From sequence record OK335775.1: 64,000 bases of DNA, one strand, 5' to 3'. The position numbers and the translations under genes are program-made. The notes beneath the pieces were generated by a model, which was given only the letters and a program-made list of their open reading frames with translations, made no database searches and was not told where the DNA came from. This DNA is from Escherichia phage PSD2002. This document shows, one piece after another, positions 13,496-31,358 of the stretch (within the stretch, counting starts at the first letter, position 1; every line of letters starts with the position of its first letter).

Positions 13496-14500
13496 TTAGA
13501 ATTCGAAGATAATGTTAATTTCTTCTGTTTGGTCCATGGAACGAATAACCGGAGGACGGTTTTCCATATAAATCATTTCACCGGAATGGCGGGAGAGGTC
13601 TATAACATCATAGTACTCTTTTTCGGCTTTAATGATCGGATCGGATGGGTGAGCTTTAGCTTCTAATGGATTAGAGATTATCGAAAGCTGTCTAAATCCT
13701 TTGTTACCAGGAAGACTAAATTCAGGGAAGTAAACTGAATCTAAGAATGCTTTAAAACGAATGGTATTGCCTTTAATACGATAAATCAATCCATAATCGT
13801 CTTGCTGCCAAGTAAGGTTATTCTCGTATCCCCAACGTTCTGGGTCTTCAGCAATTTCTTCCGGCCATGGAACCACAATATATTCATTAGTGCAACGGTT
13901 GATACTTACATCAGGTGGAATCTCATACAAATATTCCCAGAGATATCCATCACCTGTATCAACCATACCTTCCGTATCGCCTTGTCCTGCAGGGGCTTTA
14001 ACCGATTGTACGTTTGAAGTCCATTTACCACCAAGTTTAATACACTCAGTTTTATTATCAAGGGACAAAATAGAACATGTACCCGATTCAGGAATATCTA
14101 CACAACGATAAACCATCCACCCAGCGCCGACATCAGTACGGTTTTGCGGCTGGCTGTTCGCCACTACAATTTCACCAATCTGGAAAGTAAATGGGTTAGG
14201 ATAAGAGGTATCGCCCCAGTCTTTGCGCGGGACAACACAATCCAACATGCTCTTATAAACCTTAACACAACCCATCATGTTTGTCCAGACGTCTTCTACG
14301 CCCTCAGAATCATCTACAGGATATGGTGGTGCAAAACCCGGGTCATTTTCGTTATCGGCCCATGGTCGGGCCCTTCCGAAAGATACATACATGGTGTTCT
14401 GGTCTTCACCATCACCTATTGTTCTGTAAAAGTTGTACATTTTTTCCGTTCTAAATTTTGAAGTAACAATAGAACGATAAACTACTGTAGAATTAATCAT
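13496..14500 (-). CDS. 8: baseplate wedge protein gp8
   Basis: 334 aa, identical length to T4 gp8; synteny. Confidence 0.75.
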   Translation of the reverse strand: MINSTVVYRSIVTSKFRTEKMYNFYRTIGDGEDQNTMYVSFGRARPWADNENDPGFAPPYPVDDSEGVEDVWTNMMGCVKVYKSMLDCVVPRKDWGDTSYPNPFTFQIGEIVVANSQPQNRTDVGAGWMVYRCVDIPESGTCSILSLDNKTECIKLGGKWTSNVQSVKAPAGQGDTEGMVDTGDGYLWEYLYEIPPDVSINRCTNEYIVVPWPEEIAEDPERWGYENNLTWQQDDYGLIYRIKGNTIRFKAFLDSVYFPEFSLPGNKGFRQLSIISNPLEAKAHPSDPIIKAEKEYYDVIDLSRHSGEMIYMENRPPVIRSMDQTEEINIIFEF

Positions 14501-17500
14501 TAATTTTTACCTGAGTTGGAACTTTAGGGTCTCTAGGATTTCCAATACCGTCTTTAAGACGCTTATCAACCAGTGCACGCCAATTGGCAAAGGTCACCAC
14601 ACTTTGGTCAAACAATGGACTATGCTTTTTAATACGTTCGTGTGGTAATTGACCTTGGAATACAGAGAAATCATTTTCTGCATCATAATCGGCAGGAATA
14701 TCAAACGGTTCTCCTGCTTTAGGTCCTACGTTGTACGTTGGAGCACCTGTACGAGGGTCTCGTTCTATATTACCATCAAAACCTATTACAGCAACTCTAT
14801 CATACCATTCAGATGGCAAACCTGAGTCCCATTTATAGTTCTTAAGGATATTAATAATAGTTTCTGTATGTTTTAGCGTTAAACCTACGTTAACAAACAT
14901 AGAAAGCAAAGTTATACCTACAAAGCCGAAACCTACTGGATGAACAAATCTCAAAACATCGTTGCGGTAACGAGAGGTAGGGAGATTAGACTTAATAGTC
15001 ATAACATAATAAGAACGGTTACGGTTGATATAGTCGATATTGTTACTCAAAAGCTCTTTACCACGTACACCCCGAACAATCATACCCTTGAACGAAGTAC
15101 GTTCAGATTTAATTTCCTGACCGACTATAAAACGACCTAAAAGGTTATGAATGGTTAAACGCCATTGCAGTTTACCTTGTTTATAGTTACGTTCAATATA
15201 AGTAACATTACTACGTCCTGTAGGAGTATAAATGGTTTGGCCGACAATATCTTCACTGATATTATCAGATTCTACGATGATATCATATTCGATAGAGTTC
15301 TTGGACTCGATATCAATTTCGACATCTTCGTTGTAAAGCAATTTAAACAGGAATTTATATGAAGCTTCGGTACCTTTAGTAGACCAAAAATCGCTTTGGC
15401 GCGCCTGGAAAAAACGAACAACTTCATCGCGTTTTTCCTTCGACAAATAGATATTACGCTTATAGATTTCTGACCACAAATATTCCCATGAATCTTCTTC
15501 ACGTGGGTATTGGTTACGAATAAGATTCAACAAATTATTATAGTGTGTACCAGAACCATCACTAATAAATTGGAGATAGTATTCACAGAATTTTTCAAAG
15601 TTAGAATCTTGAAGCAAATAACTATCTGGAATCATTTTAACCAGTAAAGGCTGGAGGTCTGGGTCCTGCTCACCAACTTCCTCTTTAGGTTTCCATGGGA
15701 TTTCATGTTCTTGGTTTTGCAATTCTGCCGTAAACATAATTTCTTTAGGCTTCCAAATAACACGGACTTCATCACGCACGCGATAGTCAAATTCAAAATA
15801 TCCAACCAATTCGCCTGTAGATTTGTGAATCATCATTCCGGAAGAATATTTCTTAAAGCCATTAAACTCTATATTAGGAGATGTGACTTTACAAAAACCT
15901 TTATTCCAAATCTCATGAACAATACGTTCAGGTGAAGAACCACTGTTCAGGTCGATAATTTTCTGGTATAAAGCATCATTATAAACAACCATCGCATGGT
16001 CGCCAGTAGTAATCCATGAACGGGTTCCATCACGACGAGACCAACTAAAGAATGGTTCGGCATAATAAGCCATACGCCCAGGTTTAAATTCTTTGAAATC
16101 GGATTTAGAGTTAGACCTAAAACTCATCATCAAATAATGTTTATCGTGAATCCATTGTTCATCTTTAACATATTTAACGGCGGAGGTGACAATTTCAGGG
16201 TATTCCAAAGGAAGCTCAGAATCAACCTCTACTTCATATCTAAAGTTGCTTGAACTGAAAAATAATTCCTCTCCGTCGGTAGACATGCTGGTATATCCAT
16301 GCTCTATACGACGACGTTCTTCTTCTGTGTTTCCAAATACACGAGTCCATGTATCAGTTGAAGTGTCTAACCAATAAACACCTTTGGATTCAGAATCAAC
16401 CACATTGGATTCGACCGTAGGGTCCATTTTTTCTTCTTTAACTTCACCTGTAATTAAAGCAAATGTATGGCCTTGGATAGAATCTAATTTATAACAAACA
16501 GCTTTAGGGTTCCCTGTGATAGTCGAATATCCGCTTTCAAATATCTTCTCTCCATAAGTCGGAGAACTAGGGTCGGTGTCTATAGGGGCTTCAGATGTTT
16601 TTGCTTTATAAACTCTGTCTCTACCGGCAACATAAATGAATTCATCAGATGCGCACATGGCCTCGGCAATAGTAGAAATAGGTAAAGGAAGCTTTGCATA
16701 TGAACCGAATATCTCAATTTCAAATGGAAGGTCGATATCGCTACCTATTTTAGCAAAAGTTACATCTTGGGAACTAAATCTAACGTCATCAGCAGACCAA
16801 CGAATATCACTTGATTTACGTCCGTAAAATATTTGGTCATAACCTAGAACATAAGTGGTCGTGTCGGTTTGGTAGTGTACCGTACGTGAAACAGGGTTAC
16901 CTACTCGGTCATTAAACAAACGGATATAATGCCAGTTCTGCCCTTTATCATTAGAAACCTTAGCGGTACTTTGGAATCTTTCTAAAAGGTAAAGTACGCC
17001 ACCGAGTTCCATTAAAATAGAACGTTTAGGGTCTTTACAAACCGCTTGGATGCTTCCTTGGATTTCATGGAAACGGTCAGCTTTTAAAACATAATTTGAT
17101 ATAGATGACAAATGCGAATATGCAGGGGTAAAGTTAAAATCTTCACTCATCAAAGAAGCCATAATGGCGTCAGTATTAAAGTTCACATAATTCTGATTAT
17201 TTTTTGTGAATTTTTCTTCAATAAATTTATTAGACAAAGTGAATTCGCGCATATGCTCAAATGTATATGCGTTGGTAGAGAAAGTTTCAAATTCTTCAGT
17301 GTAAACCCATTCGGACTGCTCAAACCCCTGGGCGGCCACCGCAACTCGCATTTTATAAAATGAATTAGGAGAAATGAATGCCTCTTCAAACCATTCGTTA
17401 TTAGGGGTGTAACCTAAATTTCTCCAAAATAATCTATCGTCGGGAATTTCTACACCCGCATCCTTCGTTTGGGCCAGTTCTACGAAATAATAGAAGTTGG

Positions 17501-17588
17501 CGCCTACGTCATCCCAAAGAATGCTCACATGGTTAGCCGAGAGTTTATCAATTCTCAGACTAGTAACATAAGGCGCTTGTACAGACAT
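14493..17588 (-). CDS. 7: baseplate wedge initiator gp7
   Basis: 1031 aa (T4 gp7 1032 aa); synteny. Confidence 0.8.
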   Translation of the reverse strand: MSVQAPYVTSLRIDKLSANHVSILWDDVGANFYYFVELAQTKDAGVEIPDDRLFWRNLGYTPNNEWFEEAFISPNSFYKMRVAVAAQGFEQSEWVYTEEFETFSTNAYTFEHMREFTLSNKFIEEKFTKNNQNYVNFNTDAIMASLMSEDFNFTPAYSHLSSISNYVLKADRFHEIQGSIQAVCKDPKRSILMELGGVLYLLERFQSTAKVSNDKGQNWHYIRLFNDRVGNPVSRTVHYQTDTTTYVLGYDQIFYGRKSSDIRWSADDVRFSSQDVTFAKIGSDIDLPFEIEIFGSYAKLPLPISTIAEAMCASDEFIYVAGRDRVYKAKTSEAPIDTDPSSPTYGEKIFESGYSTITGNPKAVCYKLDSIQGHTFALITGEVKEEKMDPTVESNVVDSESKGVYWLDTSTDTWTRVFGNTEEERRRIEHGYTSMSTDGEELFFSSSNFRYEVEVDSELPLEYPEIVTSAVKYVKDEQWIHDKHYLMMSFRSNSKSDFKEFKPGRMAYYAEPFFSWSRRDGTRSWITTGDHAMVVYNDALYQKIIDLNSGSSPERIVHEIWNKGFCKVTSPNIEFNGFKKYSSGMMIHKSTGELVGYFEFDYRVRDEVRVIWKPKEIMFTAELQNQEHEIPWKPKEEVGEQDPDLQPLLVKMIPDSYLLQDSNFEKFCEYYLQFISDGSGTHYNNLLNLIRNQYPREEDSWEYLWSEIYKRNIYLSKEKRDEVVRFFQARQSDFWSTKGTEASYKFLFKLLYNEDVEIDIESKNSIEYDIIVESDNISEDIVGQTIYTPTGRSNVTYIERNYKQGKLQWRLTIHNLLGRFIVGQEIKSERTSFKGMIVRGVRGKELLSNNIDYINRNRSYYVMTIKSNLPTSRYRNDVLRFVHPVGFGFVGITLLSMFVNVGLTLKHTETIINILKNYKWDSGLPSEWYDRVAVIGFDGNIERDPRTGAPTYNVGPKAGEPFDIPADYDAENDFSVFQGQLPHERIKKHSPLFDQSVVTFANWRALVDKRLKDGIGNPRDPKVPTQVKIND

Positions 17589-17615: not shown

Positions 17616-19574
17616 TTATATTGTAATTGGTTCCAACTCTATAGTTGTGTACTGAGGACGAAGGTCATCTTCAAATACGATTAAAGAACCGTCTTTGGTA
17701 AAGATGTTGTCTTGGTCTGGCCCTGCATAAAGTTCAATAGACTGGACTTCAAAACGATCGGAAGTAAGGCCTATTGCGGCGATATCCCAGAAAATAAAGT
17801 CCGAGTAATAATCAATTTCGCCAATAACATAGTAGACCGATTGGTCTGCAGGCGCTGCCATTTTATCAAAGTCATCTCCGGTGTAAGGTTGGATGTATTG
17901 GTTTTCAATTACATCGCCAGGTCGGAAAGGACCTATAACCATTTTACCATCGCCTCGTTCGTCTTTATCTGTGGCAACAATACGTACGTTGTAAGATTTA
18001 ACAACATCAGATACGTTTGTTGGGACGAACTCAAATTCACTAGAAGTTACAGAACGGTTGGTGTATTGATTATAGTATTTAATACCCGCTTCAGGTGTTT
18101 TGAAGAAGTTTAATACCTCGCGAACCATTGTTACCGTAGCCGAAGAGCCAAGGATACTGTGGTCTGCATTATCAATATAAGTCAGCATTTTAGACTTGGC
18201 AAATCCGTGGTTGAATATTTCAACTTCGTTAATATAATAACGGTCTATTTGGGAAAGGATTTGGGCCGTTAACCATTGTTCGGATTCCTGTAATTTGTTC
18301 AGTGCATATGAAACCTTAATTTTATGCTTCAAGAACAAGTAGTCAGGAGAAATAACCGAAGGGGTAATAGGTGCCAAGTTAAATTCTGAAAGATAATTTT
18401 GGATATCTTCGCGTTGAACCGCAGTCAAATACAATCCTGATTTAGGTTTAATGGTAACAAAGGCATAACCTGGTTTATTTGGGTCTGTAAAGGTTTGTAC
18501 TGCTTGTACAATAGAACCAAATCGCTCCGAAACGAATGTATCATAATCTGTACCGGTTACAGCACGCATCTGGGCTTCACGTTTAACTACAGCAAGTTCA
18601 CGAATACGTTCAATATCTTCAGGGTCACCACCACCGTCAGCACCTACATAATCCGGGTTTTCATCGTAGTTTTCTGTAATTTTTTCAACCGTAATATATG
18701 CCAAAGAATCCGCATAACTAAAGTCCACTGCCCCGTTAGCAACTTCACCATCTGTACGAAGGTATTCTATAACAATGGTAGCATCTTTAACAGGTTTTAA
18801 ACCACCAATATAATTAGCTTCTAATACCCCACCTGCAACTGATTTTTCAGCAACACCTTCACCAAAGAAGAATTCAGTATTACCATCTACGGTTTCACGC
18901 ATATAGTAAATTGTTGATGTACTACCAGCATGAACCATGGATTTATTAGTCCAGTTAGTCCATTCTGCGCCATCGACATAAAGTTTAACTTCCTGTCTAT
19001 CAATATCCGGGTCACGAATAAGAATAGGAGTTTTAGGGTCATACTTAAGTTCAGTACGGATAATACGACCTTGTGCTAAAGATACGATAGGAAGATATTG
19101 GTTATTAACATCACGTACGGCAATAACGTTTTCCGTGGTAACAAAAGAATACGGGTCTGCTGAAGTATCACGGGCATAGGCCAAGAATTTAGTACCACGT
19201 GGGATACGAATATTCTTTTCATTCAGGGCTTGGGTACAGGTCAACATGATACTTGTTTTGGCTGCTGATTTAGAACTTGGCAAATAGCCGTTATCCTGTG
19301 CAGCCTGGACGACGGAGGAACGCAAGTTAGCAGTACCGATGAAAGATTCATATACCGCGGTATTAGCAAACTGCTGCATATACAGGGTGTTGTAAGCTAA
19401 CATGTCAATCAGGATATTCATTCGCGAACCAACGAAATCGTAATCCTTAAATTCGTCCTGGCTAGAAAGCCAATCGATAATATTCTTTTTAATCTCTTCA
19501 AACGTAGCTCCCACAAATACTTTTGGGATAGCGTTAACGGTTCTTGTTAATTGGTAATTCGTAGGAGTAGCCAT
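17616..19574 (-). CDS. 6: baseplate wedge protein gp6
   Basis: 652 aa (T4 gp6 660 aa); synteny. Confidence 0.75.
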   Translation of the reverse strand: MATPTNYQLTRTVNAIPKVFVGATFEEIKKNIIDWLSSQDEFKDYDFVGSRMNILIDMLAYNTLYMQQFANTAVYESFIGTANLRSSVVQAAQDNGYLPSSKSAAKTSIMLTCTQALNEKNIRIPRGTKFLAYARDTSADPYSFVTTENVIAVRDVNNQYLPIVSLAQGRIIRTELKYDPKTPILIRDPDIDRQEVKLYVDGAEWTNWTNKSMVHAGSTSTIYYMRETVDGNTEFFFGEGVAEKSVAGGVLEANYIGGLKPVKDATIVIEYLRTDGEVANGAVDFSYADSLAYITVEKITENYDENPDYVGADGGGDPEDIERIRELAVVKREAQMRAVTGTDYDTFVSERFGSIVQAVQTFTDPNKPGYAFVTIKPKSGLYLTAVQREDIQNYLSEFNLAPITPSVISPDYLFLKHKIKVSYALNKLQESEQWLTAQILSQIDRYYINEVEIFNHGFAKSKMLTYIDNADHSILGSSATVTMVREVLNFFKTPEAGIKYYNQYTNRSVTSSEFEFVPTNVSDVVKSYNVRIVATDKDERGDGKMVIGPFRPGDVIENQYIQPYTGDDFDKMAAPADQSVYYVIGEIDYYSDFIFWDIAAIGLTSDRFEVQSIELYAGPDQDNIFTKDGSLIVFEDDLRPQYTTIELEPITI

Positions 19575-19575
19575 T

Positions 19576-21663
19576 TTAATTCCTAGTAGGAGATTCTAAA
19601 CAAGGTATGCAAATGGAAAGGGATGGAAATGCAATCGTTAAACCGAATATTCCCAGCATCTTATTAATCCATTGTACCACCTTACTTAAGGATAATGTTG
19701 ATATTTGGTTATACATTGATTTGCACAAGTCTTTCATTGACCTGGAACCATCAGTAAATTCGTGATATAAAGATTTTGCTTTAGTTACTGAGTTCTCGTA
19801 TATAACCATGATATCATCTACAGTAGCTCCGAGCATACCGAGAAGTTCTTCCATTTGAGCCACAATAGGAAGTTTTTTGAATTCTTCTAAAGCCATATCT
19901 AATACATCAGAAACGGAGGTTTGACTTTCGGTAATAGAGTTCTTAATCTGATTATATTTATTCTTTAAAAGTTCGAGTGCAGCTTCAGCTTGTGCTAATG
20001 CGGCTTCCTTCTGAGCAGTTAGCTCGTCTGTAACTTTTTCGTACATTCCTGAAAGATATTGTTTAAATTCAATAGCTTGTTTTTGTACTTCTTGCTTTTT
20101 GAGCTTAATCTCATTCCACAGATTGAGTGCCTGGGTTTTAAGAGCCTCAATCATTGCATAAGCTTCGTCTATTTTCTGGTCTACCTTTTCCATAACCATT
20201 TGATAAACATCTGATGCTGTGAATCCTGGAAAGTTACCGCTCATTATCATGTCCAGTGGTTTAACTTGCTTCATCATTTCCTTGACCGCAGTAATAACGC
20301 TCCAAACTGGGTTCGGAACTATAGGAGGCATACTCCATATTTGAGCGAGGTCTACACACAGTTTTGATAATGCAACACCAGCCATAAGCAATTGAGACCA
20401 GGCCCAGTCATACAAGTCTGTAATTGCATCAATAAGGTCACGCGAATACATCTTGACGCGTTCAACCGAATAATCGTATGCAGACCCAATGGCAGAATAA
20501 ATCGATTGGATGGTTTCTTCTAAATTAAAGTTTTTCCATGCTTCTTTTAATTTCTGTACACCATCACCTGAAGTGCAGAGGTCTTCTAGGTCAATAGTCA
20601 TGCCCATAATAGTAATCGAGGGTAAAAAGCTTTTAAGTAAGTCCCACCCACCGCCAACAATATCCAAGACCTGTGATATGGCATCTTTAAATGCAAGAAA
20701 AGCCATTTGCTGAACATATTGACACATAGCAACAGCTGAGTTGCCTAGCTCTTCCATTGCGACCGATAGCTTACTATAACCAGAATCGAAGAATTTTTCC
20801 CAATCGGTTCCACCAGATGATGGCCATCCAGGGAGCATATCCCAATATAATTTGAATGAATTCCTAGATGTATTCCATGAAGCCATAATCGCATTGGTCA
20901 ATCCGTTGTAAGGGAATTCCGCTGTAAAAGGAACACAGCTTATTGCCCTGGCTCGCCCGGTTATTTCTGGCGGTAAAGACCCGATGGATACCGGTCCCGG
21001 AATCGGAGTTCCTGGGATACTCATATCAACATCTAGATTTAATACCAGTCCAACATAAGTACAAGGTTTTGTCTCATAGTACTTCAAATAAGCCCTGCGG
21101 GAGTCACCAAGGCCGTTAAAGTTGACATACATATGATAATCAGCCGTAACTGCAATCATCGTCCTGGGGTCCATTCTGGGGCCTTGTGATGTCCATACAC
21201 CGCCACAGTTTTCGATGCGATACATATCATATTCAATAGATGTTTTATACAATACAGATTTTGATAAATCAGCGCCGTACCAATCATTACCGGGCAAAAG
21301 AGTTGCACCAATCGATTCTACATAATTTTCTAAATCCAATTGCGTAATAAAGAATATTCCGAGTTTAGCACACCAGATACCTTGACTTGTTCCATCTTCC
21401 GGTGGGGGAGGTGCAGGAAAAGTTTCGGACTTATTACCAAATGGATTTTGTGTGTATAAATGTGTAGCTAGTGGAATAATCTCGGTATCCCATTCAACGC
21501 CATTCCCAGGTTGAATAAAAGCACCTGTTGGGTTATATAATTCCCATTTAACCCGGCGATATTCACCGGGTCCTACTGCGTCATCACAGGGACTTGTTAC
21601 AGTCCCTACCACTTCATCAACTTTATCGTAGTAATTCATATTAACCGACCTGTACGTTGCCAC
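19576..21663 (-). CDS. unrecognised 695-aa protein in the baseplate operon (Cys-containing N-terminal domain, long coiled coil, C-terminal hydrophobic segment)
   Basis: Long ORF; start overlaps gene 5 end by 23 nt and stop abuts gene 6; no match to any T4 core protein I can recall; occupies the slot of T4 5.1-5.4. Confidence 0.6.
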   Translation of the reverse strand: MATYRSVNMNYYDKVDEVVGTVTSPCDDAVGPGEYRRVKWELYNPTGAFIQPGNGVEWDTEIIPLATHLYTQNPFGNKSETFPAPPPPEDGTSQGIWCAKLGIFFITQLDLENYVESIGATLLPGNDWYGADLSKSVLYKTSIEYDMYRIENCGGVWTSQGPRMDPRTMIAVTADYHMYVNFNGLGDSRRAYLKYYETKPCTYVGLVLNLDVDMSIPGTPIPGPVSIGSLPPEITGRARAISCVPFTAEFPYNGLTNAIMASWNTSRNSFKLYWDMLPGWPSSGGTDWEKFFDSGYSKLSVAMEELGNSAVAMCQYVQQMAFLAFKDAISQVLDIVGGGWDLLKSFLPSITIMGMTIDLEDLCTSGDGVQKLKEAWKNFNLEETIQSIYSAIGSAYDYSVERVKMYSRDLIDAITDLYDWAWSQLLMAGVALSKLCVDLAQIWSMPPIVPNPVWSVITAVKEMMKQVKPLDMIMSGNFPGFTASDVYQMVMEKVDQKIDEAYAMIEALKTQALNLWNEIKLKKQEVQKQAIEFKQYLSGMYEKVTDELTAQKEAALAQAEAALELLKNKYNQIKNSITESQTSVSDVLDMALEEFKKLPIVAQMEELLGMLGATVDDIMVIYENSVTKAKSLYHEFTDGSRSMKDLCKSMYNQISTLSLSKVVQWINKMLGIFGLTIAFPSLSICIPCLESPTRN

Positions 21664-23428
21664 CAGATACTTTAGCTAATGAACCGCCATCCATATGCAC
21701 AGTATTTGATGCGTTTAAATTAATGTTCGTCGCTGCAAAATTTAAATCTTGTTCGACATTTACATCCATATTTTGAGCATTGATTGTGGCCTTTTGTTTA
21801 ACGCTTATATCTGCATTCTGGTTGACATTAACTGTTGTATCTTTTTCAACCGTAATATATGCTTCTTGTTCAACAGTTATATCAGCAGTACCCATAATAA
21901 CTATTTTAACATTTCCTTTAACAAGCAGAGTTCCATTACCTTCTACAGTTTTGGTTTCATTCCCTCGAATATGAATGCTTTCAGACCCATCAGTTTGACG
22001 GCGCACGTTTGCCATATTATAATAGGTTTCATCGCCACCAACGTTGACTTTATTATTACCACCAACATAAGTATTTGAATCGCCTTGGGTCATATAATAA
22101 CCATCGGCTACCGTCTTAGAAGTTTTACGTCCATCAGGAGCAACTTCTTCATAACTACCGGTAGGATGGATTAAACGGTATCGTTCTTGCCCTGGGGTAT
22201 TATCGAATTCTTGGATATGCCCGCCTTCAGTTTGCATGGTTTGGACATATGGATATTCGCCTTTATAACTAGAATCAGGTTCTTTAAAAAGAATCCTTGT
22301 GTCTTCTGGAGTCCACGGGTCGGCAGGGTCTGAATTTGTAGGGGCCACAAAGGTTTGAATCATTCTATACGAACGGCCATTAAATGACCTTTCTTTAGGG
22401 GCCATAATACCATATGATTCCATGTTACCTGTGAGGATAATCATTGACACCCTTGATGCGCGACCTTTAGTTTGGTTAAACCATACCGAATTACGGGCTT
22501 CTTCAAATGCCTTTTTATAATCGCCTATTAACATTGCACTAAGCATTCCACGGAATTTAGCAAGCCCACCTAATCCCATTTGGAAAGCCATGTTTTCAAG
22601 AGCCATTTGTCTCGAACGGTTTTCTTTATTATAAACAGGACCTACAACACTATGCAGGCCTATATCATTTTGGACTTTTTTAAGGTCGTCTTGGAATAAT
22701 TTAGAAACCTCGTCCATTGATATTGCACCAGGGTTACCTTTAACTTCTCGTCCTACCTGATTAGATAATATTTTGTTTATTTGATTCATATCTCTAATAG
22801 GTTGTGGCGTAATAAGGTGACCTATACCTATAGTAGGATAACCTTCGGTATCCCAATATACCTTCAGTCTAAGCCCTTCATCACGATGAAGCATGTTTTC
22901 TATTGTGAAATTAGGATTATCATCAGGCTTGACTTGGCTCAAATCCAAACCGTCTGGGTTAATACCTACATCGGTGTTTGCATCTTGTATTACGTTGGAA
23001 GTGGCATCATATCCAACTTCACCACCTCGGTTTAAAGCCGCGGCATCATTACCTAAATAAAGTGGGTATTGACCTGTCGGGTCGCTAAAACCTTCATTAG
23101 GATTAGCCTTTTGTCTTGAAGCGGAACCGTATGTACCAAGGACCAGTCCGTTTAATTTCCACTTATCAAGAAAATGCCCATAAACCTGTGTACCAGGAAC
23201 CATACCGGTCATGGCGGTTTGAATACCTGAAACAGAGGCTGAAGATGTAGGCATTAATACCGACATCCATGGTAAATCTTCTGTACGAAGGCCTTTTACT
23301 GGACCTTGCACTTTTTCGTATGGATGCATGCCCCATACGCGCACGCGTACTCGGCCTTGTTGGAGTGGGTCCATTCGGTCTTCAACTACGCCGACGAACC
23401 AACTGACATTATCAGACATGTTAATCAT
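21641..23428 (-). CDS. 5: baseplate hub / tail lysozyme gp5
   Basis: 595 aa; N-terminal NVSWFVGVVEDRMDPLQQGRVRVRVWGMHP and lysozyme segment YWDTEGYPTIGIGHLI match recalled T4 gp5. Confidence 0.9.
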   Translation of the reverse strand: MINMSDNVSWFVGVVEDRMDPLQQGRVRVRVWGMHPYEKVQGPVKGLRTEDLPWMSVLMPTSSASVSGIQTAMTGMVPGTQVYGHFLDKWKLNGLVLGTYGSASRQKANPNEGFSDPTGQYPLYLGNDAAALNRGGEVGYDATSNVIQDANTDVGINPDGLDLSQVKPDDNPNFTIENMLHRDEGLRLKVYWDTEGYPTIGIGHLITPQPIRDMNQINKILSNQVGREVKGNPGAISMDEVSKLFQDDLKKVQNDIGLHSVVGPVYNKENRSRQMALENMAFQMGLGGLAKFRGMLSAMLIGDYKKAFEEARNSVWFNQTKGRASRVSMIILTGNMESYGIMAPKERSFNGRSYRMIQTFVAPTNSDPADPWTPEDTRILFKEPDSSYKGEYPYVQTMQTEGGHIQEFDNTPGQERYRLIHPTGSYEEVAPDGRKTSKTVADGYYMTQGDSNTYVGGNNKVNVGGDETYYNMANVRRQTDGSESIHIRGNETKTVEGNGTLLVKGNVKIVIMGTADITVEQEAYITVEKDTTVNVNQNADISVKQKATINAQNMDVNVEQDLNFAATNINLNASNTVHMDGGSLAKVSGGNVQVG

Positions 23429-24030
23429 TAGAGGGCTTTCTCCATTTCTCTAATTAAAGCGGAAACAAAGGACTCGATGTCATTAGGGTCTATAATCTTT
23501 ATTTCGCGCTTATATTCATTTTTACGAATGGCGTCCTCGTAAATATCTACTGCAGCCAAAGGACCTTCATATTGAGGATAACGTTTTTCTGTATCACCTT
23601 TATCGTACCAAGTATAAGGATTTTCCGGAGTATTTACTAGATTCCAGAATTTCTCACCCTTTTCATTGACATGATAAAGGACTTGGTTTCCGCCTGCAGT
23701 AGCATAACGTTGAATAGCTGCTTGATACGCAGATTCTTGGCCTGTAATCCAGCCGTAATAAGGGTCATATACGTTATTACACATCAATAAAACCCAATAT
23801 AATTGCACGTTACCATAAAGTTGATGGGCTAATTCTTCTGGACGAGGGGCCCCACTGATATAATATGTTTTAAGTGTATAATTTTTAGCCACTTTATCAA
23901 AATATTCTTTATAGTTTCTAAATATATCAGTCATCGGTACGCTCAGTACATCGGCATCAGTTAATGAGCCGGAATCTGGCTTGACTGTTTTTGATTCGTA
24001 ATTTATAGGATCGAAAAATGAGAAGAGCAT
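23428..24030 (-). CDS. 53: baseplate wedge protein gp53
   Basis: 200 aa (T4 gp53 196 aa); immediately upstream of gene 5; SD GGAGG. Confidence 0.75.
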   Translation of the reverse strand: MLFSFFDPINYESKTVKPDSGSLTDADVLSVPMTDIFRNYKEYFDKVAKNYTLKTYYISGAPRPEELAHQLYGNVQLYWVLLMCNNVYDPYYGWITGQESAYQAAIQRYATAGGNQVLYHVNEKGEKFWNLVNTPENPYTWYDKGDTEKRYPQYEGPLAAVDIYEDAIRKNEYKREIKIIDPNDIESFVSALIREMEKAL

Positions 24031-24075
24031 AGTGCCTCCGAGTATAAATAATATTAATATTTATAAGGAGGCACT
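24031..24075. promoter_or_regulatory. palindromic divergent late-promoter region (TATAAATA on both strands) with mirrored GGAGGCACT-ATG ribosome sites for genes 53 and 4
   Basis: AGTGCCTCC GAGTATAAATAATATTAATATTTATAA GGAGGCACT: 9-bp perfect inverted flanks, plus-strand TATAAATA 24043-24050, minus-strand TATAAATA 24058-24065. Confidence 0.7.
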
Positions 24076-24525
24076 ATGGCCTACTCAGGGAAATTTAAAC
24101 CTACAAACTTACAAAAATATAAAGGTGATTGGAAGAAAATCCAATATCGTTCCTCTTGGGAAGCATGGCTTATGCGTTGGCTTGACAACCATCCTAATGT
24201 CGTCCAGTGGAACTCGGAAGAGGTTGTGATTCCATATTTTAGTAACGCTGATGGAAAGAAACGTCGGTATTTTATGGACTTCTGGGTGAAGTTCGACAAT
24301 GGTCAACAATTCTTTTTCGAAGTCAAACCTTTTAAAGAGACCCATCCTCCAGCGGCGCCTGCTAAAATGACTACAGCTGCTAAAAAGAGATATATCAACG
24401 AACATTATACATGGAGTGTAAATAAAGATAAATGGAAAGCTGCTAAAGCTACAGCAGATAAAATGGGAATTAATTTCAGATTGATTACCGAAAACTCACT
24501 GAAAAAATTAGGATGGAAAGGATGA
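24076..24525 (+). CDS. 4: head completion protein gp4
   Basis: 149 aa (T4 gp4 150 aa); synteny 53/4/2/3/1. Confidence 0.75.
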
Positions 24526-28492: not shown

Positions 28493-28678
28493 ATGAAACG
28501 TTGTGAATTAATTAGAAATGTTACTGCACTGGCCGCTGTTACTGCTTTTGGCTTTAGTATGTTTGCAGGATTCATGCTCGATATGCTTTCAACTTCCGAG
28601 AATATAATCTCTTTAGTAGTGGCATTTTTAATTGGTTCAATTTCTTTTGTTATGGATAAAATCTCTAAAGGTGAGTAA
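28493..28678 (+). CDS. small hydrophobic (membrane) protein
   Basis: Start trimmed to ATG after SD GGAGA; hydrophobic stretches. Confidence 0.5.
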   Translation: MKRCELIRNVTALAAVTAFGFSMFAGFMLDMLSTSENIISLVVAFLIGSISFVMDKISKGE

Positions 28679-28679
28679 A

Positions 28680-29060
28680 ATGTATAAAGTGTATGCAGAT
28701 TATCAGGCAAATCCATCTGAAAAACCAGATTGTCAAATTGGGTGGGCACACGACACCCTGCTTAAGGCGGTAGATAAAGCCCAGGAATTAGGGTATAGTT
28801 ATGTGGATATTGTTCAACCCAATGGGACCGTTATTACACTTGAAGAATTCAAGAATATCAAAACAAACTTTTTGCTCTTTGCGGGTGATAACTATTACCC
28901 TCGTGGCGGTTATGCCGACTTAATCGCAAAGGCCGCTACTGAAGATGAACTGCGCGATATCATTAAAGAAAATGAGAATAACCCTCTTTACGGTTCTAAT
29001 CGTTTTGACTGGTGGCAGATTGTTAATGCCAATACCCATACTATTGTAGACGAGGGTTAA
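28680..29060 (+). CDS. hypothetical protein
   Basis: ORF from MYKVYADYQ (start trimmed to ATG after SD GGTGAG). Confidence 0.5.
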   Translation: MYKVYADYQANPSEKPDCQIGWAHDTLLKAVDKAQELGYSYVDIVQPNGTVITLEEFKNIKTNFLLFAGDNYYPRGGYADLIAKAATEDELRDIIKENENNPLYGSNRFDWWQIVNANTHTIVDEG

Positions 29061-29351
29061 ATGTTATACGTTAAGGTTACTAATCCAGAGAATGGATATA
29101 ATTCAGACCAGGTTGCAGCAGAGCTACTGATTCGCAACTTTGGCAAAGGTGCTGTGCTTGATGTCCAACAGGTTAATATTGGTCGTAGTTCAAGCGACGT
29201 TAAACTAAAAGTTAACGGTCGCCGTTATAATTCTGTTAACTTTACTTTCTACACCGCAACTGAAAACGGGTTGGTCGAATACGACATCTTTAAAAATCCT
29301 TTGAAGATTGCTTCTATTAAACTTGATTACATTAATATGTGGCCACAATGA
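29061..29351 (+). CDS. hypothetical protein
   Basis: 96-aa ORF, ATGA-style junction with preceding gene. Confidence 0.5.
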   Translation: MLYVKVTNPENGYNSDQVAAELLIRNFGKGAVLDVQQVNIGRSSSDVKLKVNGRRYNSVNFTFYTATENGLVEYDIFKNPLKIASIKLDYINMWPQ

Positions 29352-29525
29352 ACCAAATTTGACCAGACTATTCCTAAAAATAGTAATATGCTTTAAGAGT
29401 AATGTGTTATTATTACTCTATCATTAATACCCTCTATTACCAAAGGTTCTTCCCTCAAAGAACCTTTCATAATAGACAAGGTCTATTAATCAAACTTACT
29501 TTACTTAATTTTATTTGAGGTGTTT

Positions 29526-29792
29526 ATGTTAGTATTAAAATTAGCTTTTTATGACCCGGCAACCAAGACAACAACAACCAAACGTTGTTCTATTTCATAT
29601 GAATGTCAATTTGGTGAAGTTGAGACCGACGGCGGGCCCTTTATGGCAATTGCCGATAGCACATTCGCTAAACCAAAAATAATTCCACTAGTTAACGCTG
29701 CGGCTTATCTGGTTGCTCCTGAAGAAATGACTTATCACACAATTCAGCACATGGCTAAAGATGATAATGCTCCTGCTGGATTTGTAGTTTAA
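29526..29792 (+). CDS. hypothetical protein
   Basis: ORF with SD GAGGT 5 nt upstream of ATG 29526; immediately precedes tRNA genes. Confidence 0.45.
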   Translation: MLVLKLAFYDPATKTTTTKRCSISYECQFGEVETDGGPFMAIADSTFAKPKIIPLVNAAAYLVAPEEMTYHTIQHMAKDDNAPAGFVV

Positions 29793-29797
29793 ATTAA

Positions 29798-29874
29798 GGC
29801 CCTGTAGCTCAATGGTTAGCAGCAGTCCCCTCATAAGGGAAAGGTTACCAGTTCAAATCTGGTCCGGGTCACCA
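29798..29874 (+). tRNA. tRNA, anticodon CAU (Met, or Ile if lysidine-modified)
   Basis: Hand-folded cloverleaf: acceptor GGCCCTG/CCGGGTC, D-loop AATGGTTAG, anticodon loop CU-CAU-AA, T-arm ACCAG-TTCAAAT-CTGGT, encoded CCA. Confidence 0.7.
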
Positions 29875-29879
29875 ACTAT

Positions 29880-29954
29880 GTCCCGCTGGTGTAATGGATA
29901 GCATACGATCCTTCTAAGTTTGCGGTCCTGGTTCGATCCCAGGGCGGGATACCA
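29880..29954 (+). tRNA. tRNA-Arg (anticodon UCU)
   Basis: Hand-folded: acceptor GTCCCGC/GCGGGAT, anticodon loop CU-UCU-AA, T-arm CCTGG-TTCGATC-CCAGG, encoded CCA; T4 also encodes tRNA-Arg(UCU). Confidence 0.75.
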
Positions 29955-30335
29955 AATGAAGACTATTATATAGTCAAGCCGTCGTATGAAGACTGATTAC
30001 CAGCATTCACCGGCGCAACAAACAAGAAACCGGGTCGCTACCGGTAAGTCGTCGGACTGATGTTCCCTGAGTAAGGACTGGCATTAACAAATCTTTACGA
30101 TCTGTTAACGTTCCCTTACATCACAGCAGAAACGGCGCACCGAATTATCGATTCGAGGAAATATCTTTGCCGTAAGCCGAGTAGCGTTTTTGACGGAACG
30201 TTCGGATATGGTCGAGATATGGCCTTTTAAAAATATTGAGTGGCGTCAACTACTTAATAACCGGGTTCGAATCCCGGCGTTTCGTACAAACACTTGCCTA
30301 GCAGGTGGAACCCCGACAAGGTTACCCTAGGTTAA
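29955..30335 (+). ncRNA. candidate structured stable RNA(s) downstream of tRNAs (contains an orphan tRNA-like T-arm)
   Basis: About 380 nt with no ORF of 60 aa or more in a gene-dense genome; perfect T-arm CCGGG-TTCGAAT-CCCGG at 30261-30277; ends at a terminator; T4 has stable RNAs C/D in its tRNA region. Confidence 0.3.
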
Positions 30336-30364
30336 AGGCCCTTCCGAAAGGTTGGGCTTTTTTT
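30336..30364 (+). terminator. rho-independent terminator (copy 1 of a duplicated terminator)
   Basis: GGCCC-ttCC-GAAA-GGtt-GGGC followed by TTTTTTT. Confidence 0.7.
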
Positions 30365-30399
30365 GTATAAATATGTAGTAAACTAACTTAGGAAATAAT

Positions 30400-30864
30400 A
30401 TGAAAACTTACAATGAATTTTTGACTGAACAATCTAGTTCAGATGTAAAAGCCGCTGCTATTGCAGCAATTCAAGCAGGTAAATATTCTTACAAAGACGC
30501 CTCTGATGAAGAACGTTTCCGTTTTATTAAAGATTTTAAAGCCGAAGGTTTTACTAATGCTAATACTGTTAGCCGAGTTTTTAAAAGCCTAGCTGCATCA
30601 GGTGAATTGTTCCAGAAAGCTACAGGTAAAGCACCTGCGTCAAAAGCGGACCCTAAAGCCGCTCAAGAAAAAAATATCGCCAAAGGAATTATTTCTAAGT
30701 ATGAAGCAATTCTTAAAGAGCTTTTAGTAATCAAAACAGAAGGCCAGAAACTGGCACGAGCACATAGCTTCAAAGATAATCCACATGCTCACGACTTAGA
30801 GTATGTTGAAGATATTCAGAAAATCATCAAAGACCGTATCTGGTCTGCTAAACAAATCAAATAA
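30400..30864 (+). CDS. CTS-bearing protein (predicted capsid-packaged internal protein)
   Basis: Starts MKTYNEFLTEQ; 154 aa, Lys/Ala-rich. Confidence 0.6.
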   Translation: MKTYNEFLTEQSSSDVKAAAIAAIQAGKYSYKDASDEERFRFIKDFKAEGFTNANTVSRVFKSLAASGELFQKATGKAPASKADPKAAQEKNIAKGIISKYEAILKELLVIKTEGQKLARAHSFKDNPHAHDLEYVEDIQKIIKDRIWSAKQIK

Positions 30865-30867
30865 CGA

Positions 30868-30888
30868 AAGCCCCAGATGGGGCTTTTT
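30868..30888 (+). terminator. rho-independent terminator
   Basis: AGCCCC-agat-GGGGCT followed by TTTT. Confidence 0.7.
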
Positions 30889-30978
30889 GGTTAACTTAGA
30901 GAAATATATGAAACTTTTAAAATAAAGCTATGTTAGCCTTCCACATAAACCCATTCCGGTTCTACAAGAACTGATTCT

Positions 30979-31007
30979 AGGCCCTTCCGAAAGGTTGGGC
31001 CTTTTTT
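30979..31007 (+). terminator. rho-independent terminator (copy 2, near-identical to 30336-30364)
   Basis: AGGCCC-ttccgaaaggtt-GGGCCT followed by TTTTTT. Confidence 0.7.
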
Positions 31008-31029
31008 GTTTCTAAAAAGTTTAAAAAGT

Positions 31030-31078
31030 TGTTTACACCTCCTTTAAACATGATACTATAGACCTATCAAAACAACAG
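31030..31078 (+). promoter_or_regulatory. early promoter cassette (PeSL-like)
   Basis: GTTTAC 31030-31035, 17-nt spacer, TGATACTATAGACCTATCAA, SD GGAGAG. Confidence 0.6.
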
Positions 31079-31094
31079 AGTGAAGGAGAGTAAA

Positions 31095-31358
31095 ATGGAT
31101 AATTATGGTGAATTGTTTAATTTCTTTATGAAATGCGTTCCGGAAGAATTTGGTGCTACAGTTAACGATATTAAAGTTATCGGTCCTGAACACCCGGTGT
31201 ATGAAACCTATGCAGTAATGGGTAATGAAGATGGACAGTGGTATACAATTAAAGTTGTGATTAATATGTTCTCAGCTGAAGGTTACGCCAAATCGTCTAC
31301 CAAAGTTTACCATGGTAATGATTTTGATGCAGAAAATTATTTCAATAATATGAAATAA
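31095..31358 (+). CDS. hypothetical protein
   Basis: ORF from MDNYGELFNFF after SD; 87 aa. Confidence 0.5.
   Translation: MDNYGELFNFFMKCVPEEFGATVNDIKVIGPEHPVYETYAVMGNEDGQWYTIKVVINMFSAEGYAKSSTKVYHGNDFDAENYFNNMK

Follow-up and report, generated by a model that had tools for sequence, protein, structure and literature searches.

The passage of contractile tails through the Gram-negative envelope, and the contribution of the spike tip to it, are only partly understood. In T4 the interval between genes 5 and 6 contains only 5.1, segC, 5.3, and 5.4, a contrast correctly drawn by the initial annotation of the DNA considered here. In this stretch of Escherichia phage PSD2002 (64 kb of sequence record OK335775.1; the window), the interval is filled by one large gene on the minus strand. 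The question raised by the locus is what this gene encodes and how its product relates to the small T4 proteins, above all to gp5.4, the PAAR protein that caps the T4 spike. The evidence considered here makes it likely that the gene encodes the spike-tip protein of the phage, a 78-kDa analogue, non-homologous, of the 97-aa gp5.4 and possibly of gp5.1 as well. For brevity, the gene and its product are referred to as the tip gene and the tip protein.

Replacement of 5.1 and 5.4 at the locus

Nucleotide comparison places the window in a T4-like coliphage of the Bp7/WG01 type: it is 94-96% identical to Escherichia phage Bp7, the closest complete genome, and for the 6.4 kb compared with WG01 the identity is 99%. 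Both phages are classed in the genus Dhakavirus (Straboviridae, Tevenvirinae). With T4 gp5.4 as the query, PAAR proteins are found in 1,422 phage records, including such distant ones as Campylobacter and Rhizobium phages; the same query has no match in the window, finds nothing in the complete Bp7 genome (best E 6.7), and finds nothing in twelve 13-22-kb IMG/VR neighbourhoods of relatives of the tip gene. T4 gp5.1 gives no tblastn match in the window or in Bp7.

The tip protein does not resemble the T4 proteins of this interval. The Pfam PAAR family (PF05488) has no match in it at E<=0.1, hhalign gives a probability of 0.07% against a 6-member gp5.4 alignment and 0.15% against gp5.1, and there is no similarity to T4 5.3. 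Its fold shows no similarity to the small conical PAAR beta-fold, and its N-terminal domain has no relative in the PDB; a PAAR-like fold in the N-terminus, which the initial annotation proposed to look for, was found neither in sequence nor in structure. Because hhalign shows no homology to gp5.4 or gp5.1, the tip gene is best regarded, on these comparisons, as a non-homologous replacement of 5.1 and 5.4.

The boundaries of the replacement are visible among very close relatives. Phages QL01, LQ5, PSD9, MX01, JS98, JS10, and IME08 have flanks 88-98% identical to those of the window (64% of the region covered) and carry 5.1 and 5.4 (PAAR). Homology to QL01/JS98 breaks off within gene 5, at 21872, with 77 codons left to the stop of that gene, and is found again from 19585, nine bases short of the stop of the tip reading frame. 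These two breakpoints define the exchanged unit, which is the gp5 beta-helix tip with the tip gene on one side and a gp5 tip with 5.1 and 5.4 on the other. The features concerned are as follows.

19586..21871, minus strand: spike-tip cassette (gp5 tip and large tip gene), allelic to gp5 tip, 5.1, and 5.4 in QL01/JS98
19576..21639, minus strand: gene of the probable large spike-tip protein, 687 aa (RB43 orf205w / phrog_5296 family), from the phrog_5296 match, identity to RB43ORF205w, and the starts of homologues; the mechanically called frame reaches a GTG at 21663
21641..23428, minus strand: gene 5, whole (Pfam Gp5_OB, Phage_lysozyme, Gp5_C)
21872..23428, minus strand: N-terminal 519 codons of gene 5 (OB domain, lysozyme, proximal beta-helix), common to 5.4-type dhakaviruses; 96% nucleotide identity to QL01 up to the breakpoint
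21641..21871, minus strand: last 76 codons and stop of gene 5, a beta-helix tip of the type found beside the tip gene (X-type), ending ...KVSGGNVQVG, delimited by the end of QL01/JS98 homology at 21872, by the tip classes described below, and by identity to SP18

Comparison with Shigella phage SP18, of the genus Gaprivervirus, suggests how the cassette came to be distributed. Nucleotide identity to SP18 is 99.1% for the gp5 tip and 99.3% for the tip gene, against 73% for gp53, 86% for the rest of gene 5, and 78% for gp6 in the flanks. Gene 5 is accordingly a mosaic, with 86% nucleotide identity to both Bp7 and SP18 over its first 519 codons and 99-100% over the last 76 codons and the tip gene; the gp6 of Bp7 is 99.8% identical to that of the window. 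This mosaicism places recombination junctions inside the beta-helix coding region, and the identities indicate that the large-tip cassette has moved between genera. Synteny of the interval, a comparison that had been recommended for this locus, shows two alleles at one site among the dhakaviruses compared, the tip gene or 5.1 and 5.4. What is new is that the gp5 tip and the tip gene are exchanged horizontally as one defined cassette, of which phages as closely related as these carry one or the other of two alleles.

The end of gp5 varies with its neighbour. Beside the tip gene, gp5 ends in (T/S)G(G/A)xVxVG in 17 of 17 tips read, namely those of the window, ten IMG/VR loci, the RB43 RefSeq entry (...TGGTVQVG), and the proteins accompanying P0056, P0057, and P0059, which are the three most divergent metagenomic members of the family, together with SP18 and Bp7, which were assigned by nucleotide identity (99-100% to the gp5 tip of the window); the protein readings leave out the L007 row and the G8 tip. 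Of the 6 phages read in which 5.4 follows, five (T4, QL01, JS98, a Krischvirus, an Aeromonas phage) have a gp5 ending in ...GSRI(D/N)(I/L)G and the sixth, an Acinetobacter phage, has one ending in ...PRYNMV, and T4 gp5 aligns to the gp5 of the window only up to residue 543 of 575. Such co-inheritance and co-variation would be expected of a protein that, like PAAR, attaches to the extreme end of the gp5 beta-helix.

The likeness to T4 gp5.4 (PDB 4KU0, PF05488) would be one of place and function: the slot just upstream of gene 6, late expression, the capping of the spike, and, presumably, the end of the gp5 beta-helix as a common binding site. The two proteins differ in length (687 against 97 aa), have no similarity of sequence or fold, and would need different gp5 end sequences.

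In one JGI metagenome (3300076144; L023:219-1388) the gp5 is a 389-aa protein with an OB domain and a beta-helix, lacks the lysozyme domain, and ends in ...TGGTVVVG; it precedes P0059, at 743 aa the most divergent member of the family.

Family membership and gene boundaries

The initial annotation described the reading frame as unrecognised. Homology makes it a member of the RB43 orf205w family, which is already described, so that the protein itself is no new discovery: the GenBank record of SP18 notes the similarity to RB43ORF205w, and two papers discuss the family (see below). BLASTP aligns RB43ORF205w, which sits between genes 5 and 6 in RB43, to the window protein over its whole length (43% identity, 560 bits, 695 columns), and the homologue of Slopekvirus KP15 (locus L016) is also 43% identical. 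The corresponding PHROG family, phrog_5296, has no function assigned, and Pfam has no family for the protein, returning only sub-threshold coiled-coil noise.

The distribution of the family is restricted. In tblastn searches 215 phage records match the tip protein, 213 of them covering at least 80% of it; most are Klebsiella, Escherichia, Enterobacter, Cronobacter, Citrobacter, and Proteus phages, and the protein is always annotated as hypothetical. A search of 5.8 billion proteins yields 56 clusters, almost all of 660-700 aa; the exceptions are a fragment of 580 aa and a remote member of 764 aa, which is 31% identical. Exhaustive HMMER comparison with 1.84 billion representatives recovers 8 full-length clusters and fragments, adds only two divergent full-length clusters, and finds no remote relatives outside T4-like phages, the remainder being weak coiled-coil matches. 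As judged from these searches, the family is narrow and confined to T4-like phages.

The gene follows gene 5 in all 12 related IMG/VR loci and in three distant metagenomic members; the order gene 5, tip gene, gene 6, gene 7 is kept in 11 of the 12, and gene 53 lies upstream wherever the contig reaches. In the twelfth locus, L010 (IMG/VR 3300045988_066415, an S13-like phage of 183 kb), the tip gene again comes after gene 5, but downstream of 12067 no gp6 or gp7 was detected within 10 kb of the tip gene, unlike in all other loci; a rearrangement or insertion may account for this. In two further loci, L014 (RB16-type) and L012, gene 6 is set apart from the tip gene by approximately 0.7-0.9 kb of additional DNA, which may be an insertion of the homing-endonuclease type, by analogy to segC of T4.

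The gene is almost certainly somewhat shorter than was first reported. In the six-frame list of open reading frames (ORFs) of the window, the longest call at the locus is 19576..21663 (minus strand, 695 aa, GTG start). The ORF reported in the initial annotation and its coordinates are real, and it is the start codon, and hence the length, that does not stand; both the 695 aa and the supposed 23-nt overlap with the gene 5 stop arose because the longest ORF was taken. An ATG lies at 21639, one base past the gene 5 stop (...GTC GGT TAA T ATG AAT TAC...), and does not overlap gene 5. A methionine at this position or within a few residues of it, beginning MNY... or MDY..., is the start in almost all of the 45 aligned homologues, none of which matches the eight extra residues of the 695-aa form. 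The phrog_5296 profile match runs from residue 9 to 690 of that form (profile positions 1-684 of 685, E=0), the Bp7 and SP18 records annotate the 687-aa form, and no Shine-Dalgarno sequence was found before the GTG. The position of the ATG, the starts of homologues, the start of the profile, and the Bp7 and SP18 annotations together give a protein of 687 aa. At the other end, the stop of the tip gene (TAA) is followed by one base and then by the ATG of gene 6.

Two more prosaic origins, both foreseen in the initial annotation, are that the ORF is a tape-measure or hub protein relocated to this site or that it is a fusion of several small genes produced by sequencing errors. Tape-measure proteins do give PHROG matches, but these are marginal (E 7.6e-4 and 5e-3) and lie only in the helical half of the protein, and Bp7 has its own gp29, gp27, gp28, gp26, gp48, and gp54 elsewhere. 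Fusion by sequencing error is ruled out by the full-length homologues in the phage records and the 56 clusters: the 213 records and all protein clusters, even those as low as 31% identity, keep the frame unbroken over its full length. Moreover, the protein is modelled as one confident fold (predicted local distance difference test score [pLDDT] 86.5, predicted template modelling score [pTM] 0.77) and has no similarity to T4 5.1, 5.3, or 5.4. Taken together, relocation and artefactual fusion are extremely improbable.

Proposed position in the virion and architecture of the protein

Published work on relatives bears on the particle itself. RB43, RB16, and Lw1 are without gene 5.4, and their 5.1-5.4 locus holds orf205w, encoding approximately 690 residues, of which 1-220 are mixed alpha/beta and the rest helical (Mattenberger et al., bioRxiv 2025, PMC12407873). 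The last 60 residues of RB43 gp5 are only 15% identical to T4 gp5. At 17.7 Å, the baseplate map of RB43 has a bulkier feature where the spike ends, and an AlphaFold model of the orf205w product can be placed in it; on this map rests the proposal that the product is a large alternative tip (PMC12407873). RB43 ORF205w (YP_239181) shares with the window protein full-length homology, the slot between genes 5 and 6, an alpha/beta N-terminus followed by a helical remainder, a gp5 partner ending in ...TGGTVQVG, and the absence of 5.4. It differs in belonging to another genus, at 57% sequence divergence, and the segregation of two alleles and the exchange with SP18 seen in the window lineage are not described for RB43.

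For the Klebsiella phage Helios (Slopekvirus), an AlphaFold 3 model places gp203 on the trimer of gp202, its gp5; gp203 has a three-helix core at residues 287-327, 398-440, and 631-670 with a distal "loop at the tip" (Viruses 2026, PMC13611949). The authors extend the idea of a large tip to Straboviridae without 5.1 and 5.4 and treat gp203 as an analogue of the gp5.1/gp5.4 complex (PMC13611949). The window protein is of the same family and has the three-helix core at equivalent residues, and the same analogy is proposed for it; the Helios structure is a computational model only, and the likeness was drawn from the published helix positions.

Replacement of 5.1 and 5.4 at the locus, co-inheritance with a matching gp5 tip, and the extra tip density of RB43 (PMC12407873) agree well with one option in the initial annotation, a spike-tip extension. 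The reading as a spike tip is well supported by genetics, and the indirect evidence from virions comes from the literature, in the form of the 17.7 Å RB43 density.

Several points weigh against it. Placement of the tip protein in the virion is indirect, by analogy to the RB43 map, which is C6-averaged at its 17.7 Å and of which the authors write that the object is "possibly encoded by orf205w"; they rate the confidence of the orf205w model as low, and co-expression of orf205w with a gp5 beta-helix fragment failed (PMC12407873). Neither in sequence nor in fold does the tip protein resemble a known spike tip. The absence of PAAR rests on the complete genome of Bp7 and on the 64-kb window of the source genome. 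The virion proteome table of Morganella phage MP1 lists neither gp5 nor the protein of the tip locus (PMC5384007) and is uninformative either way, because gp5 itself went undetected. Virion proteomics of Jiaodavirus (PMC13119998) concerns gp5.4-type phages, and nothing usable was found in published virion proteomics of KP15/KP27 and JS98. Finally, co-inheritance with the gp5 tip would also be expected of a dedicated assembly factor.

This last point leads to a different view of the protein, as a late chaperone or assembly factor for the variant end of gp5 that is absent from the finished particle, the RB43 density then coming from something else. A specific chaperone would be co-inherited and would co-vary with gp5 just as a tip would, the recombinant complex with the gp5 fragment failed (PMC12407873), and no proteomic detection is known. 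Such a role would imply a blunt, uncapped spike without PAAR, yet the density at the RB43 tip is greater, not less. The locus offers no other candidate gene for a tip, and a well-folded, strongly conserved protein of 687 aa would be unusual as the chaperone of a 76-residue segment. An assembly factor seems distinctly unlikely on this balance, and the spike-tip assignment is retained in what follows.

The architecture of the tip protein was examined in an AlphaFold2 single-chain model built on a 46-sequence alignment, with secondary structure assigned by DSSP; the mean pLDDT of 86.5 and the pTM of 0.77 given above refer to this full-length model. Its parts, all on the minus strand, are listed with residues of the 687-aa form.

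21040..21639, minus strand: residues 1-200, compact alpha/beta N-terminal domain, highly conserved (WYGADLSK, YRRVKWELYNP), with C18 and C193 invariant
20764..21039, minus strand: residues 201-292, Pro-rich strands and linker with near-invariant C235; pLDDT 72-90 (linker 59-68) in the full-length model
19579..20763, minus strand: residues 293-687, helical half, with helices 294-328, 398-435, and 631-665 (DSSP) matching the three-helix core of Helios gp203
19915..20217, minus strand: residues 475-575, long antiparallel helical hairpin (475-529 and 538-575; helices of 55 and 38 residues)
19597..19656, minus strand: residues 662-681, conserved hydrophobic C-terminal helix-turn-strand (GLxIxFPxISICVP) with near-invariant C677; pLDDT approximately 91
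21586-21588, 21061-21063, 20935-20937, and 19609-19611, minus strand: codons of C18, C193, C235, and C677, respectively

The N-terminal half, central coiled coil, and hydrophobic C-terminus described in the initial annotation are thus recovered as the alpha/beta N-half, the 475-575 hairpin, and the 662-681 segment. Residues 201-292 are modelled confidently only in the full-length context; in an isolated N-terminal model their pLDDT falls to 34-73. The most conserved parts are the N-terminal domain, the segment PPxVPNP...SGNFPGFTA, the turn at which the long hairpin reverses, and, near the C-terminus, LSKVTQWVNKLL...FPxISICVP. In the hairpin itself the helix surfaces are poorly conserved and the turn is conserved (Q527, Y528, M532, T541); the hairpin is likely the distal apex of the tip, in keeping with the "loop at the tip" of the published AlphaFold 3 model. 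Conservation extends to four cysteines, of which C677 lies in the C-terminal strand and the other three in the N-terminal part. C18 and C193 occur in every sequence of the alignment, and C235 and C677 each in 45 of 46. By analogy to the iron or zinc sites of other spike tips, the four may form a metal site.

The C-terminal segment was considered as a transmembrane anchor and rejected. Its mean Kyte-Doolittle hydropathy is high only in the window sequence (1.87, against a family mean of 1.06), a conserved proline lies inside it, and it is confidently modelled as a helix-turn-strand within the fold; the suggestion that the C-terminus interacts with membranes accordingly finds no convincing anchor.

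A further-reaching proposal gives the spike tip an added, active role, and so extends the spike-tip assignment without excluding it. After puncture of the outer membrane the helical bundle would open as ClyA-type alpha-pore-forming toxins or type III translocators do, and its hydrophobic segments would insert into a membrane to help form a conduit for DNA or to perturb the envelope. The protein, helical and for the rest soluble, has hydrophobic stretches at residues 417-435 (hydropathy 1.51) and 662-681 (1.87) that would suit this role, and a mass of 78 kDa far exceeds what mere sharpening of the spike needs. Other results weigh against it. A sequence profile search of the PDB returns coiled-coil matches only, the best being Hbl-B (E 0.005), and that match is limited to the poorly conserved coiled coil; Foldseek finds nothing in the PDB below E 0.1; and the C-terminus is only mildly hydrophobic family-wide and is modelled as buried with high confidence. 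The fold matches to the ClyA family (ClyA, Hbl-B, MakA, YaxB, AhlC, XaxA) are not specific. An active role of this kind is judged quite improbable. The most elaborate version, in which a large tip stabilised by metal at Cys18/193/235/677 is a membrane-active device that unfolds after puncture and helps in crossing the periplasm or the inner membrane, is speculative and unlikely; if true, PAAR with 5.1 and the large tip would be alternative strategies of envelope penetration, with cassettes swapped to fit the host envelope.

Known systems offer partial parallels to a large spike tip. In phage P1, the PAAR protein UpfC and the UpfB tripod likewise form a helical extension beyond the spike with a distal loop (PMC13611949), but P1 retains its PAAR protein and has UpfB, a distinct helical protein, as a second component in three copies, whereas in the window a single polypeptide would replace PAAR. 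PAAR proteins of type VI secretion systems with C-terminal extension or toxin domains also put large cargo at the spike tip; they keep the canonical PAAR adaptor, in contrast to the window protein, which has neither PAAR nor a recognisable toxin domain. No evidence was found in favour of a toxin or of the alternative adhesin that the initial annotation had also entertained.

Expression and proposed action of the tip

The neighbouring features place the tip gene within a run of T4 baseplate genes on the minus strand.

24058..24065, minus strand: TATAAATA, a late promoter core of the T4 type, 27 nt before the ATG of gene 53; motif match only
23428..24030, minus strand: gene 53 (baseplate wedge), first gene of the putative transcription unit (Pfam Phage_gp53, E 9e-73)
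17616..19574, minus strand: gene 6 (baseplate wedge), with five gp6 Pfam domains; its ATG is one base after the tip gene stop
14493-17588: gp7, neighbouring T4 baseplate gene

The TATAAATA core before gene 53 is the only one on the minus strand between 14000 and 26000; its function as a promoter is assigned from what is known of T4 late promoters. One-base gene junctions and a single late-promoter core fit a structural operon. Late co-transcription of the tip gene with the baseplate genes is plausible, because the sole late-promoter core upstream on the strand precedes gene 53; co-transcription with gene 5, as claimed at the outset, is likewise plausible, resting on that one motif.

Genes 4 and 53 diverge from a gap of 45 bp, and within it, at 24043-24065, two TATAAATA cores stand back to back, one on each strand. 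The head-completion protein gp4 (24076-24525, plus strand) has a Pfam match to a TnsA-like endonuclease N-terminal domain (E 2.9e-24). Elsewhere in the window, genes for tRNA-Met (CAT; 29798-29874, plus strand) and tRNA-Arg (TCT; 29880-29954, plus strand) lie within approximately 2.6 kb of DNA (28572-31229) to which nothing in the Bp7 record corresponds.

The following course is proposed for the spike tip. The tip protein would be made late, from a message covering 53, 5, the tip gene, 6, and 7, and would attach where the gp5 trimer ends bluntly, at the C-terminus of its beta-helix; in these phages that end has a sequence of its own, ...(T/S)G(G/A)xVxVG. Attachment would probably involve one copy and use the base of the internal three-helix core. 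The long helical hairpin would lengthen the spike, with the conserved turn as its distal point. When the sheath contracts, the tip would be forced into the outer membrane ahead of the rest of the virion and would pass with the spike into the periplasm, which the spike of phage P2 has been shown to enter (PMC12407873).

The Bp7/WG01 and QL01/JS98 phages differ by a clean cassette, a gp5 tip with a 687-aa protein in one and a gp5 tip with gp5.1 and PAAR in the other. They therefore offer a nearly isogenic natural system in which a large tip and a PAAR tip could be compared for host range, dependence on lipopolysaccharide, and efficiency of DNA delivery, and the cassette defines a minimal unit of transplantation for spike engineering.

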